A stretch of 64,000 nt of DNA from Pristiophorus japonicus (lineage: Eukaryota): NCBI RefSeq assembly GCF_044704955.1, contig NC_091989.1:85684001-85748000 (forward strand), in the 5' to 3' direction. The notes below the pieces were generated by a model. That model was not told the origin of the DNA, did no database searches, and saw nothing but the letters and a program-made list of their open reading frames with translations. The position numbers and the translations under genes are program-made. This document shows, piece by piece, positions 28,845 through 34,350 of the stretch. Each line of letters begins with the position of its first letter. Position 1 is the stretch's first letter.

Positions 28845-28964
28845 GATTATCAATACAACTATGACGGCCCGAAACAGCTGTTGTTTATTTTAAGAAATTA
28901 AAGAATGGATACCGTACATGTCAGATGTTTTCATTTATCTGAATTGCGTTCTTTACCCAAACAG

Positions 28965-29270
28965 CTACCCCTGCTCTGCTGAAAATTGTATCCATTGCAT
29001 CCGAAGGTGCTTCATCCGTTTATTTGAGACTCCAGTGCAGAACAGTCGCGTTTTACCCGAAAGACTTTAAACTCACCTGGCATAAAATTGATACCGCAAT
29101 GCGGATTGGATTTAGAAATAAACAGCAGGAAAAGACAGAAAGACTCTATGAAGTTATCAGCTCCTTCGGGGAGACACAGTCAATTATGTCCATCACAGTT
29201 TACACCACTCATGTGCATCACTTTTCTAATTCAATTCCAACAAATGCCAGCTACACCGTTGATAACGAAG
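28965..29270 (+). CDS. C1 exon 'a', copy 2 (open; F-strand Cys replaced by Thr)
   Basis: aacag|CT...GAA G|gtaata, 306 nt; LQCRTVAFYPKDFKLTW...VYTTHVHH. Confidence 0.82.
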
Positions 29271-29437
29271 GTAATATGATATCATACATGGTATTTTAAT
29301 CAATATTCCATCGTGCGATGCTTATTTCGTCAGATGAGAATTAAGTTTGATACAGGCAACCGAGCCAATATTGGACACCAGTCATCAGCAGAGCTTACAT
29401 TATTCAGATCAACTGGCATAAAATTGCAAGCTTACAA

Positions 29438-30926
29438 CTCTTTTAAAGAGACAAAATTAAACATTAAATTCATTGCCCCCTGATCTGGGAGACATTCTAA
29501 ACACTTTTCACATGCCCTTTTTTTTTGTGATTTTTGTGGGGTTTTTTGGGCAGTAATACAAGATATATATATACAAGTTCCCCCTCTAAAAGGGGAGGGG
29601 ACACTAAAACCCGGCAATTAAAACAAATTAAACTTTAAAACATATAAAGTCAAATTAAAATTCGGTTGCCGGGGATGACGATACACTCCAGTTCCTCCGG
29701 TGCCCACGTCTCGCAGAAGGCCGCAAGTCTACCGGTGGACACTGCATGCTCCATCTCCAAGGACACCCTGGCCCGGATGTAGGCGCGGAAGAGAGGCAGG
29801 CAGTCGGGCTGAAAAACCTCCTCGACCGCCGCTGCCTGGACCGGCTGATGGCACCCTTGGCCGGGCCCAGGAGCAGTCCTACGAGGAGGCCCTCGGACCT
29901 ACCCGCTCCCCTCCGCACAGGGTGCCCAAAGATCAGGAGAGTGGGACTGAAGTGCAGCCAGAATTTCAGGAGCAGCCCCTTCAAATAATGGAACAGGGGT
30001 TGCAACCTCGTGCATTGAATTAAAACATGGAACATGGTCTCTTACAGACCGCAGAAATTGCAGGCGGCCTGGGAGCCCATGAAACGGCTTAAAAATGTAT
30101 TGCACGGGACTGCTCCGTGCACCATCCTCCAGGCCAATTCCCAGATAAATAGTGGGAGGACTCCCATGTAGAGTGCACACCATCAAGGACACCCACCTCC
30201 TCCAGATGGCAAGATGGTACACCATGGCGTGTCTGGACGGCAGACGAGGAAGGCAAGGTTGAGAGTGTGCAGGAGCAGCCCGTACAGGAAACCCCTCCGT
30301 GCAGAACTGAAAGGCACGGAGGGGATTTCCCCGATGCGGCTCAAGTTGTGAGGCGCTGCCTTCTGAGGGAGATTACGGGGTTTGGCGCCGATGAGGAATT
30401 CCGTGCGGATGGGTGTCAGTTCTGACGCGATCTCCCCACGTGCTTGAGCCTCCTCGACACACCTAATGAAGTCAGGGCCCAGAGCTGTTTTTAGCGACTC
30501 AATGGCATCGCCACGCGACGGACGTCGGACGAATTTAGGTGCCAAGCCAGCATGTCTGGCGCCATCCAGCCCGCTCCTCCCCCATCGAGCAGGTCCCTGA
30601 CCCTGGTCACCTCACCAGCCACAGCCCTCTCGTCCGACTGCCACCTAAAACCTCGGTCGTGGAGGTACGGATTCCCGAGCAGTGCTCCTGCAGGACAGCC
30701 GCCACTCCAGCCGGTGGAGAGCTGCGCTTGGTGGAGACTTTGATCCAGACCCTGATGAGTTCCTGGTAAAAGATAGGCAGCCCCTGGACGGTGGGCCTGA
30801 CGCCAAAAGTCTACTGCACCTTGTATTCCCAGGCAGTCTCCCATTCAAGTACTAACTAGGCCTGAGTCTTTTTAGTTTCCGAGATCAGACGAGATTAAGC
30901 TTATTCAGACTAGTGTGGCCGTAGGC
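29438..30926 (-). mobile_element. Full-length (~1.49 kb) 5S-headed Tx1-derived element
   Basis: 5S 30807-30926, then Tx1 ORF2 C-terminal sequence (MFHVLIQCTRLQPLF.., with frameshifts), then 3' UTR ending AAAAGAG. Confidence 0.9.
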
Positions 30927-30941
30927 TGCTTATCAATACAA

Positions 30942-31640
30942 CTCTTTTGGGGGGGGGGACAAAATAAACGTTAGATAAAGTGCCCCCCGATCTGGGGGGA
31001 CAATACAGACACTTAACTGCCCCTTTTTTTCCTTTTTTTTTGTGATTTGTTTTTTTGGGGCATTAAAACTTTATATTTAACAAGTGCCCCTTATAAAAGG
31101 AGAGCGGCCACTAAAAAATCCGGCAATAAAACAAATTAAACTTTAAAACATATAAAATCAAATTAAAATTTGGTTGCCGGGGGTGATGATGCACTCCAGT
31201 CCCTCCGGTGCCCACCTCTCGTGGTAGGCCGCGAGCTTACCAGTGGACACCGTGTGCTCCATCTCTAGGGACACCCTGGCCCGGATTTCGGCGCGGAAGA
31301 GAGGCAGGCAGTCAGGCTGAAAGACCCCCTCGACCGGCCGCTGCCTGGACCGGCTGATGGCCCCCTTGGCCGTGCCCAGGAGCAGTCCTAGGAGGAGGCA
31401 CTCGGACCTACCCGCTCCCCTTTGCACAGGGTGCCCAAAGATCAGGAGTGTGGGACTGAAGTGCAACCAGATATTGAGGAGCAGCCCCTTTAAATAATGG
31501 AACAGGGGCTGCAACCTCGTACATTCAATAAAAACGTGGAACACGGTCCAACAGCTCTACAACTCTTTTTAGGGAACAAAAATAAACATTAGATCGAGTG
31601 CCCCCCAATCTGGGAGACACTCCAGACACTTAACTGCCCC
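30942..31640 (-). mobile_element. Two further 5'-truncated Tx1 3' fragments (30942-31548; 31563-31640)
   Basis: ORF 31158-31544 ends ..ECIITPGNQILI; the small fragment is flanked by CAACAGCTC(T/A)ACAA at 31549-31562 and 31641-31654. Confidence 0.85.
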
Positions 31641-31654
31641 CAACAGCTCAACAA

Positions 31655-33164
31655 CTCTTTTGGGGGGGAGACAAAATAAACATTAAATCAAGTGCCCCCT
31701 AATCTGGGGAACACTCCAGGCACTTTTCAAATGCCCTTTTTTTTTTTTTTTAAACTTTTTTTGGGGGGTTTTTTGTGATTTTTTTGGGGGCATTAAAATC
31801 ATAAAGATTACAAGTGCCCCCTATAAAAGGGGAAGGGACAGTAAAACCGGCATTTAAAATAAATTAGACTTTAAAACAAATAAAATCAAATTAAAATTTG
31901 GTTGCCGGGGGTAATAATGCACTCCAGTCCCTCCGGTGCCCACCTCTCGCGGAAGGCCGCGAGCGTACCAGTGGACACCGCATGCTCCATCTTTAGGGAC
32001 ACCCTGGCCCGGATGTAGTCGCGGAAGAGAGGCAGGCAGTCAGGCTGAACGACCCCCTCGACCGCCCGCTGACTGGACCGGCTGATGGCACCCTTGGCCG
32101 TGCCCAGGAGCAGTCCTATGAGGAGGCCCTCGGACCTACCCACTTCCCTCCGCACAGGGTGCCCAAAGATCAGGAGTGTGGGACTGAAGTGCAACCAGAA
32201 TTTCAGGAGCAGCCCCTTTAAATAGTGAAACAAGGGCTGCAACCTCACACACTGCATAAAAACATGGAACACGGACTCTTCCAGACTGCAGAAATTGCAA
32301 GCGGCCTGGGAGCCCGTGAACCGACTTAAAAATTTATTGCACGGGACTGCTCCGTGCATCACTCTCCAGGCCAAGTCCCCGATAAATAGTGGGAGGACTC
32401 CCGCGTAGAGTGCACTCCATCGGGGACCCCCGCCGCCTCCGGACGGCAAGATGGTACGCCATGGCGTGTCCGGACGGCAGACGAGGAAGGCAAGGTTGAG
32501 AGTGTGCAGGAGCAGCCCGTACAGGAAACCCATCCACGCAGAACTGAAAGGCATGGAGGGGATTTCCCGAGGCAGCTCAAGTTGTGAGGCACCGGCTCCT
32601 GAGGGAAGTTCCGGAGTTTGGCGCTGATGAGGAATTCCGTCCGGATGGGGGTCAGTTCGGACGGGATGTCCCCACGTGCTTGAGCCTCCTCGACACACCT
32701 AACAGAGTCAGGGCCCAGAGCTGTTTTTAGCGACTCGATGGCATCGGCCATGCGGCGGACGTCGGCCGAATTTAGGCACCATGCCAGCATGTCTAACGCT
32801 ATCCAGCCCACTCCACCGCCATCGAGCAGGTCCCTGACCCTGGTCACCTAACCAGCCACAGCCCTCTCGTCCGACTGCCACCTAAAACCTCGGTGTTGGA
32901 GGTACGGCTTCCCGAGCAGCGGCTCCTGCAGGACAGCCGCCACTCCAGCCGATGGAGAGCTGTGCTTGGTAGAGACTTTGTTCCAGACCCTGATGAGTTC
33001 CTGGTAAAAAATAGGCAGCCCCTGGACGGCGGTTCTGACGCCAAAAGTCTACTGCACCTGGTATTCCCAGGCAGTCTCCCATCCAAGTACTAACTAGGCC
33101 TGAGTCTTTTTAGCTTCCGACATCAGACGAGATTGGGCTTTTACAGACTAGTGTGACCGTAGGC
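31655..33164 (-). mobile_element. Full-length (~1.51 kb) 5S-headed Tx1-derived element
   Basis: 5S 33045-33164; ORF2 remnant with WRVMHGAVPC...CNFC..EESVFHVFMQC (CCHC zinc knuckle of L1/Tx1 ORF2); no RT or endonuclease domain. Confidence 0.92.
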
Positions 33165-33275
33165 TGCGTATCAATACAACTATGACGGCTCGAAACATGT
33201 TCATGAAATTAAAGAATGGATACCGTACAGGCCAAATGTTTTCATTTATCTGAATTGCGTTCTTCACCCAATTAG

Positions 33276-33567
33276 CTTCCACTGCACCGCTGAAAATTGT
33301 ATCCATTGTATCCGAAACTGCTTCATCCATTTATTTGAGACTCCCGCATTTTACCCGAAAGAATTTAAACTCACCTGGCATAAAAATGATACCGCAATGT
33401 GGATTGGATTTTGAAATGAACAGCAGAAAAGACAGAAGCATTGTATGAAGTTATCAGCTCCTTCGGGGAGACACAGTCAATTGTGTCGGTCACAGTTTAC
33501 ACCAGTCATATTCATCATGTTTCTAATTCAATTCCAGCAAATGCCAGCTACACCGTTGATAACGAAG
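33276..33567 (+). pseudogene. C1 exon 'b', copy 2 (pseudo-exon)
   Basis: Splice sites retained. A ~13-nt deletion removes the first Cys codon and shifts the frame; TGA at ~33412; second Cys replaced by Ser. Confidence 0.88.
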
Positions 33568-34350
33568 GTAATATGATATCATACATGGTATTTTAATCAA
33601 TATTCCATCGCGCGTTGCTTATTTCGTCAGATGAGAATTAAGTTGTTTACGGGCAACCTCGCCAATAGTGGACACCAGTCATCAGCAGAGTTTACATTAT
33701 TCAGATCAACTGGCATAAAATTGCAAGCTCACAAAGGGAGAGAACGGTAAGCTTGGATGCCAGAAACCAGAACACTTAATGAGGGCTGCAGGTGTGGAGT
33801 AAGGTATATGAAGAACTACACACCTCTAGCCACCAAGCAGATGAGCCCCAGTATCATCAGATGCACAGTGCGGCTCCCTCGAGACTATAACAAATATGCA
33901 ATAATAATTAATTTGTTCACATTTGTAGAAAGATGGAAACAACCTTGGTTACCATTCATTGCAAAGAGAATCTCGAACGAATTTGTAATATAATGTCTTT
34001 CAGAGTTTCTGATATATACTGCTCAGAAGAAATACCCCAAACAAATTTGTTATTTTTCTACATGTCATGACCAGATGAATTCTTATCTAATGCACTTTAC
34101 TTCGGTCAATTAGAAGAGTACAATTTGGTATGCATTTATTCACCATATTTTGCATTGCTGCTAGTTATGCAAACTATTGGGTGGTGCATAATATTTGCTT
34201 CAGGTTTCATACAAAGCCGCTAAATAAAAATATATTGAAATCGGTCGCGTGTGGCACTTTTTCATTCTCATAGTTGCCTATTTGGAAAAATGCGGTACAT
34301 TCGATTTACATTCCACAGTTACTAATTTTGATTTTATAACAATCTGGCAG

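Follow-up and report, generated by a model that had tools for sequence, protein, structure and literature searches.

How does an immunoglobulin exon come to stand on both sides of a stack of retrotransposon copies? The locus that raises this question lies in the shark Pristiophorus japonicus (assembly GCF_044704955.1, NC_091989.1:85,684,001-85,748,000, forward strand), and we refer to the whole 64,000-nucleotide (nt) stretch as the window. It contains two tandem genes, gene 1 and gene 2, each with V, C1-set, transmembrane and tyrosine-motif exons of the kind found in the SIRP family. A unit of about 590 base pairs (bp) that holds one C1 exon occurs twice in gene 2, as a direct repeat (28845-29437 and 33165-33734) that brackets a retroelement stack at 29438-33164; these coordinates and the end sequences are as a sequence-only reading of this DNA had given them. 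We conclude that the repeat is a real, exactly bounded, element-bridged exon duplication of a known rearrangement class, in a probable pseudogene.

An exactly bounded repeat bridged by one element

Both unit copies lie on the plus strand. Copy a (28845-29437) runs from the target duplication of an insertion site before the exon, site A, through intron, the C1a exon and intron to a second insertion site after the exon, site B. Copy b (33165-33734) has deletions of 10, 13 and 1 nt and is followed by an empty site B. The left end of the unit, the site-A target duplication, comes right after element E2 in copy a (28844/28845) and right after element E6 in copy b (33164/33165). The right end is site B, which is occupied by element E3 after C1a (29437/29438) and is empty after C1b and in gene 1. 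All three junctions coincide with element ends, and the ACAA target-like motifs that had been pointed out at both unit ends belong to target sites A and B, with the refinement that site B resembles site A in little beyond ACAA. The empty-site comparison is direct: gene 1 carries one unit (12739-13328, plus strand), with a single C1 exon (12859-13164) that has both of its cysteines, no insertion at site B and two different insertions at site A, and in gene 2 the direct repeat adjoins both ends of E3, with site B on one side and a copy of site A on the other.

E3 (29438-30926, minus strand) is full length and has discordant ends. Its 3' end is at site B, and at its 5' end there is a 15-nt site-A copy (30927-30941, plus strand) instead of a B-type duplication, in the same register as at E1 and E6. 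We therefore regard E3 as the bridge of the duplication.

Alignment of the three unit copies placed 49 differences between the C1a and C1b units at 563 aligned sites (8.7%), and the gene-1 copy (aligned over 12743-13328), used as the outgroup, differed from the C1a unit at 72/585 sites (12.3%) and from the C1b unit at 67/561 (11.9%). Site patterns joined C1a and C1b at 42 sites, compared with 24 and 22 for the other pairings, and a wider alignment likewise favored this pair (43/24/24; binomial p = 0.027). C1b thus groups with C1a and not with another paralogue, and the four variants said to be common to C1a and C1b and absent from the gene-1 copy were all seen in the alignment. Genes 1 and 2 differ by 13-16% outside the duplicated unit, and the exon duplication is therefore younger than the gene duplication.

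Reads and contigs were compared with the assembled repeat. One contig matched C1a with 0 differences over 331 bases (28846-29176) and extended 30 letters further upstream, and a second contig matched the gene-1 copy (72 differences, 2 gaps). Contigs placed at no less than 80% likeness gave a summed depth of 18-39 over the unit, compared with 8-10 for single contigs; this corresponds to two to four contigs and is consistent with the three copies in the window, although such depth is not a copy number. An assembly artefact might be suspected because none of the 32 matches listed, with 45,082 more beyond the listing, spans the stack or bridges the C1a/E3 junction and because the DNA runs may come from the source sample. 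We consider it very improbable, since the unit copies have diverged by the 8.7% given above and by indels as well, the C1a contig match is exact, and four sequencing runs of a single sample, which may be the source one, contain 0.97 of the sequence words of 33170-35250.

The duplication is as old as the elements

The sequence-only reading had suggested comparing the age of the unit with that of the elements, and the two proved equal. At non-CpG sites, C1a and C1b differ at 37/509 (7.3%; 95% interval, 5.3-9.8) and E3 and E6 at 83/1123 (7.4%; 6.0-9.0), with a Fisher p of 1.0. The branch rates of unit and element also agree, both at A/T sites (p = 0.77) and at G/C sites (p = 0.57). The duplicated site A is itself occupied by E4, E5 and E6, which places the event inside the element burst, after or at the insertion of E3 at site B and before the later copies.

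These ages bear on a reading in which the layout arose by a deletion and not by duplication of the exon. Two tandem paralogues, X and Y, could have been fused by a deletion, through recombination of an element at site B of X with an element at site A of Y, giving V-C1(X)-C1(Y)-TM(Y), where TM is the transmembrane exon. The final layout would be the same and the locus is a tandem gene cluster, but the gene duplication would then have to coincide with the element burst (7.3% versus 7.4%) and the site-A stack of Y would have to differ from that of X. Moreover, contig depth, which is not a copy number, gives no clear further paralogue among the matches listed. We judge such a fusion improbable.

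Order of insertions in the stack

The introns flanking the C1 exons carry eight antisense insertions, of which a1 and a2 belong to gene 1 and E1 to E6 to gene 2. In both genes site A, before the exon, was hit repeatedly, and site B, after the exon, has one insertion only, marked by the 3' end of E3. Upstream of C1a, site A holds E1 (27541-28482), a 5S-headed copy with an internal deletion of about 580 nt, and E2 (28498-28844), a 5'-truncated copy directly before the duplicated unit; both are on the minus strand, as are all elements of the stack.

Between the unit copies stand four elements, two of them full length and two 5' truncated. After E3 and its site-A copy comes E4 (30942-31548), 5' truncated, with its 3' end at that site-A copy. 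It is followed by a hybrid site that we call site C (31549-31562, plus strand), which consists of a 9-nt filler and TACAA and recurs at 31641-31654, where it forms the target duplication of E5 (31563-31640), a 78-nt 3' stub. E6 (31655-33164) is full length, with its 5S head at 33046-33164, and carries an ORF2 remnant with 42% identity to Xenopus Tx1 ORF2 (residues 1050-1292). The site-A copy right of E3 and the one right of E6 (33165-33179) have a derived A>C in common, which is the scar expected if E6 entered that site-A copy later and suggests that it did so. E4 and E5 are most simply explained as further insertions into the same scar, with the 9-nt filler of E4 creating site C. In an alternative order, E4 and E6 may both stem from one template-switching event. 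Searching the window for site C returned only these two copies at 0 mismatches, with other matches at chance level.

The filler at the 5' junction of E4 (31549-31556) matches, as reverse complement, 8 nt within a palindrome that lies immediately to the right of site A (28876; 12770 in gene 1), and the 10-nt deletion of C1b falls at the very spot of this palindrome. Two further matches to the filler occur elsewhere in the window. The filler is possibly a templated insertion.

A 5S-headed, Tx1-tailed element family

Full copies of the element are about 1.5 kb long and consist of a 5S ribosomal RNA (rRNA) head, about 1.15 kb of the 3' end of a Tx1-like ORF2, and a 3' untranslated region (UTR). 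The heads of E1, E3 and E6 matched the Rfam model RF00001 at 50.8-70.8 bits. The body is homologous to residues 1050-1292 of Xenopus Tx1 ORF2 (42% identity, E = 2e-48) and gave a zf-RVT match just under the Pfam cut-off (E = 1e-5); a protein atlas contributed nothing beyond zf-RVT. The head-body junction is identical in E1, E3 and E6, so these copies represent a family and not a one-off chimera. At this one locus, the 3' ends read on the plus strand start with CTCTTTT in 8/8 elements and are preceded by ACAA in 7/8, and the ordinary 5' junctions of a1, a2, E1, E2, E5 and E6 show target duplications of 14-15 nt. Homology of the body to Tx1 ORF2, a target preference and short target duplications are all features in common with the Tx1 clade.

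The contigs placed on E3 reached a summed depth of 1 × 10^5 to 2 × 10^6 over most of the body, compared with about 10 for unique DNA, which points to a very abundant family, counted together with its relatives, although contig depth is not a copy number. Transcription by polymerase III from the 5S head seems doubtful on sequence grounds, given the 12-13 runs of four or more T in the sense strand of E3 and E6. The gene-1 copy a2 (12006-12738) is a different chimera at the same site A, in which two 5S heads stand in tandem, unrelated sequence makes up about 70 nt and the Tx1 tail is no longer than about 420 nt.

With SINE3 this repeated element shares a head derived from 5S rRNA. It also resembles SINE3 and the crocodilian SINEU family with its partner Tx1-Mar (Kojima 2015, PMC4494074) in its RNA-gene head, Tx1-type mobilization and tandem copies that sandwich a target-site duplication (TSD). 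It differs in joining a 5S rRNA head to a body made of about 1.15 kb of Tx1 ORF2 and the 3' UTR. The SINE3-type families tabulated in PMC3747384 have tails of CR1, RSg-1 or BovB type. No description of a 5S-headed, Tx1-tailed family was found in the literature searched, whose coverage left out Repbase, subscription journals and supplements, and the family may be undescribed.

How the exon was copied

The sequence-only reading had offered two mechanisms, a giant TSD from nicks at two target sites and unequal crossover between elements at the two sites. Both are still in play: unequal crossover is favored, and the site-A register of the far end makes a giant TSD with a random second position unlikely. 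We give about an even chance to the proposal that the 590-bp C1 unit of this SIRP-like gene, likely a pseudogene already, was duplicated by unequal crossover between a B-inserted and an A-inserted copy of the element. The events would have begun with a burst of the Tx1-dependent element, in which site A was struck repeatedly and site B once. The site-B insertion would still have been heterozygous at the time of the exchange, which we propose as the reason why site B is empty after C1b. The crossover would have made E3 a hybrid, its 3' junction being of B type and its 5' junction an ordinary one of A type; E6, E4 and E5 would then have inserted into the new site-A copy, and both exon copies would have drifted neutrally.

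Several observations suit this course of events. Both breakpoints are at same-orientation elements of one family. An earlier ordinary insertion at site A supplies the A-register 5' junction of E3 with no extra assumption. The insertions at site A differ between gene 1 (a1, a2) and gene 2 (E1, E2), which makes it plausible that chromosomes with differing stacks existed. In human genomes, duplications of about 1 kb by homologous recombination between elements are common, according to Balachandran et al. 2022 (PMC9675761). The Alu/Alu and L1/L1 rearrangements described there resemble the shark locus in having direct-orientation elements at both breakpoints and a full-length element at the junction, in their size of about 1 kb and in their intragenic position. 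They differ from it in that the shark element is a Tx1-dependent, 5S-headed one with a target preference, the second copy has an empty site B, and the hybrid nature of E3 is our inference.

Other results weigh against crossover. It had been suggested that E3 be tested for a recombinant switch, and we found none, in a near-star phylogeny in which only three copies cover the 5' half; E1, E3 and E6 have similar patterns in the 3' core and in the 5' body. The informative sites among the seven element copies compared gave no consistent tree. The 5S head of E3 shares 3 derived letters with E6 and 0 with E1, and of the 8 letters in the 5' body at which E3 departs from the family majority, E1 shares 1, at a CpG site. 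(The majority letters were taken from 27 of the 40 rows listed, of 247 in all, 13 being left out for small share or low depth, and they cover 28846-30780 only.) E2, which stands between E1 and C1a, is absent from the duplicate. E1, the sole visible partner at site A, therefore fits poorly, which speaks against crossover in its simplest form, and either an unseen polymorphic partner or later gene conversion is needed. Finally, an insertion-coupled event would explain the equal ages no less well.

Two other histories of the elements were rejected. Copying of the 5' half of E6 from E3 was considered since divergence in windows of all sites was lower there, but the non-CpG divergence is flat at 6-8% along the element and the maximum chi-square split falls in the variable 3' end. 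The 3' part of E3 looked like a subfamily mate of a2 (4.2% non-CpG divergence, 8/191), but only 2 of 18 informative sites group this pair alone and 1 more groups it with E2.

In the insertion-coupled alternative, reverse transcription primed at site B would have produced a complementary DNA (cDNA), which would then have been attached at site A in the usual second-strand position. A synchronous A insertion on the sister or homologue (a "heteroduplication") could have brought this about, and so could a second cut by Tx1 at A, or invasion of a resident A copy by the cDNA followed by copying through the exon. One step would account for the equal ages, for a 5' junction in the site-A register and for the lack of an insertion at site B after C1b, and a strong hot spot, site A, lies only 590 bp away. 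The heteroduplication form needs neither a switch in E3, where none was seen, nor kinship to E1. There is precedent in tumors (10.1101/2024.08.27.596794): among 152 L1-bridged rearrangements, 14 were duplications, and synchronous insertions that produced heteroduplications are described as well; the likeness to our locus is one retroelement with its ends at different target sites. However, those events are somatic, in humans, and come from L1-hyperactive tumors, whereas the shark event is old and germ line and spans 590 bp. That paper itself gives post-integration recombination as an alternative, countered there only by a missing intermediate. The model would also require two events to coincide in a single germ cell within 590 bp of each other. 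Two-site resolution is the main rival, which we rank below crossover, and the narrower proposal that E3 is a germ-line fossil of a single retrotransposition resolved over two target sites, with the Tx1 machinery primed at B and closed at the second-strand position of A, is more tentative still. We place crossover first because it needs no coincidence in one cell and because site A was struck so often that an unseen polymorphic partner is likely; this ranking rests on prior grounds.

A plain giant TSD, with the first nick at B and the second at an unrelated distant position, predicts the equal ages, the empty site B and the flanking repeat. Large L1 TSDs of 0.1 to over 6 kb form in cultured cells, where they make up at most 10% of events in HeLa cells and most events in cells deficient in nucleotide excision repair, and the authors state that they can duplicate exons (PMC5223499). 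As in those cases, our element lies between direct repeats that run to hundreds of bases and are able to include an exon. The second nick varies in position in those cells, but here the far end is exactly in the 14-15-nt register of a known target site, a match that by our estimate would arise by chance at about 2 positions in 590 (about 0.3%). We therefore consider a plain giant TSD unlikely. Transduction of the exon 3' of an element was also rejected, as it would need a filled site B as its source, and none was seen.

State of gene 2 and its extra exon

The exons of gene 2, all on the plus strand, are in unequal condition. The V exon (26504-26815) has an open frame and the transmembrane exon (34351-34464) is intact. 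The C1a exon (28965-29270) has an open frame and intact AG/GT splice sites, its F-strand cysteine is replaced by threonine, and it scored 19.2 bits with the Pfam C1-set model (cut-off, 21), compared with 35.2 bits for the gene-1 exon. The C1b exon (33276-33567) keeps its splice sites and has lost 14 nt, which shifts the frame and deletes the B-strand cysteine codon; its F-strand cysteine is replaced by serine. The cytoplasmic tyrosine-motif exons (43091-43400) are broken by a TAA stop and by two deletions, one of 1 nt and one of 79 nt that removes the last acceptor.

Among 51 candidates two homologues were found, both of them shark proteins, from Heptranchias (P0002; 70% identity over the gene-1 C1 domain) and from Stegostoma (P0003, "SIRP beta-1-like"; 59%). 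Both have the layout V-C1-TM, with one C1 domain each. The SIRP name of P0003 is an automatic annotation, and orthology to SIRP-alpha is putative. The F-strand cysteine codon is kept in gene 1, Heptranchias and Stegostoma and reads ACT in C1a and AGT in C1b. The two share a T>A change, and the cysteine was therefore likely lost before the exon was copied.

Substitution rates point the same way. The pooled C1a and C1b branches carry 19 nonsynonymous and 5 synonymous changes, with 0.043 nonsynonymous changes per nonsynonymous site (dN) and 0.038 synonymous changes per synonymous site (dS). Per branch, dN and dS were 0.045 and 0.031 for C1a and 0.040 and 0.046 for C1b. A dN/dS ratio (omega) of 0.2 was rejected on the pooled branches (p = 1e-4), and both exons appear to have evolved at about the neutral rate. 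The DNA between the genes has no homologue of the gene-1 leader region, the best score there being 27, compared with a maximum of 37 for shuffled sequence. Homology between genes 1 and 2 sets in abruptly at 6288 and 26469, some 35 nt upstream of the V exon, and gene 2 may therefore have lacked promoter and leader from the start. From the state of its sequence, gene 2 is a probable pseudogene; it was likely dead before the exon duplication, and the extra exon probably never made a new receptor. Three points argue for caution: an omega of 0.5 was not rejected (p = 0.07), an omega near 1 is possible in immune receptors under positive selection, and the V, C1a and transmembrane exons retain open frames and splice sites.

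Mammalian SIRP-alpha has the ectodomain layout V-C1-C1, and the sequence-only reading held that the element had turned V-C1 into that layout, with C1b decaying later. The functional part of that reading is not supported, and that a working receptor of this kind existed for a time is a slim prospect. Both C1 exons do have AG/GT sites and phase 1-1, and the gene-1 tail has four tyrosine motifs. Set against this are the cysteine loss that preceded copying, dN close to dS on both branches, the missing leader homologue, the broken tail and the V-C1-TM layout of the two shark homologues found. Gene 2 resembles the SIRP family in its V, C1-set, transmembrane and tyrosine-motif exons. It differs from SIRP-alpha in lacking intact C1 disulfides (C1a is without one cysteine, and C1b is without both and frameshifted), a recognizable signal peptide and an intact tyrosine-motif tail. 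Literature searches gave no paper on shark SIRP or on SIRP exon duplication. No RNA run was among those listed as matching, and two sequencing runs of undefined kind gave no cover on C1a; neither result is evidence on expression.

Other features of the window

Gene 1 (5918-16565) shows signs of damage as well, a TGA in a cytoplasmic exon near 16244 and a tyrosine in place of the first V cysteine, and its C1 and transmembrane exons are intact. Its V-C1 intron contains a long interspersed nuclear element at 6955-11310 that we read as CR1-like, whose 5' end holds 2.6 repeats of a 58-bp unit and whose 3' part is 98% identical to an inverted copy at 48874-49682. A decayed long terminal repeat retrotransposon, Gypsy-like in our reading and with terminal repeats about 80% identical, occupies 35259-39558 in a cytoplasmic-region intron of gene 2. 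A degenerate antisense piece of large-subunit rRNA lies at 4382-4501 (Rfam, 58.8 bits). At 20255-21384, near the end of the homology between the 3' flanks of genes 1 and 2, there is an inverted repeat with 240-nt arms that are 94% complementary and 650 nt apart.

What the locus records

At this locus, target-site scars record the steps of an exon duplication, and the event can be dated within one element-family burst. Two intronic targets that flank a phase-1 immunoglobulin exon suffice to add a domain at the DNA level. If the two-site insertion were true, a mechanism known from tumors would extend to germ-line genome evolution, a site-preferring retroelement could duplicate any exon that lies between two of its targets, and stacks of the 5S-headed Tx1 family would contain many discordant copies. 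Element-bridged duplication is one plausible route from V-C1 to V-C1-C1 genes, although this instance likely had no functional outcome.

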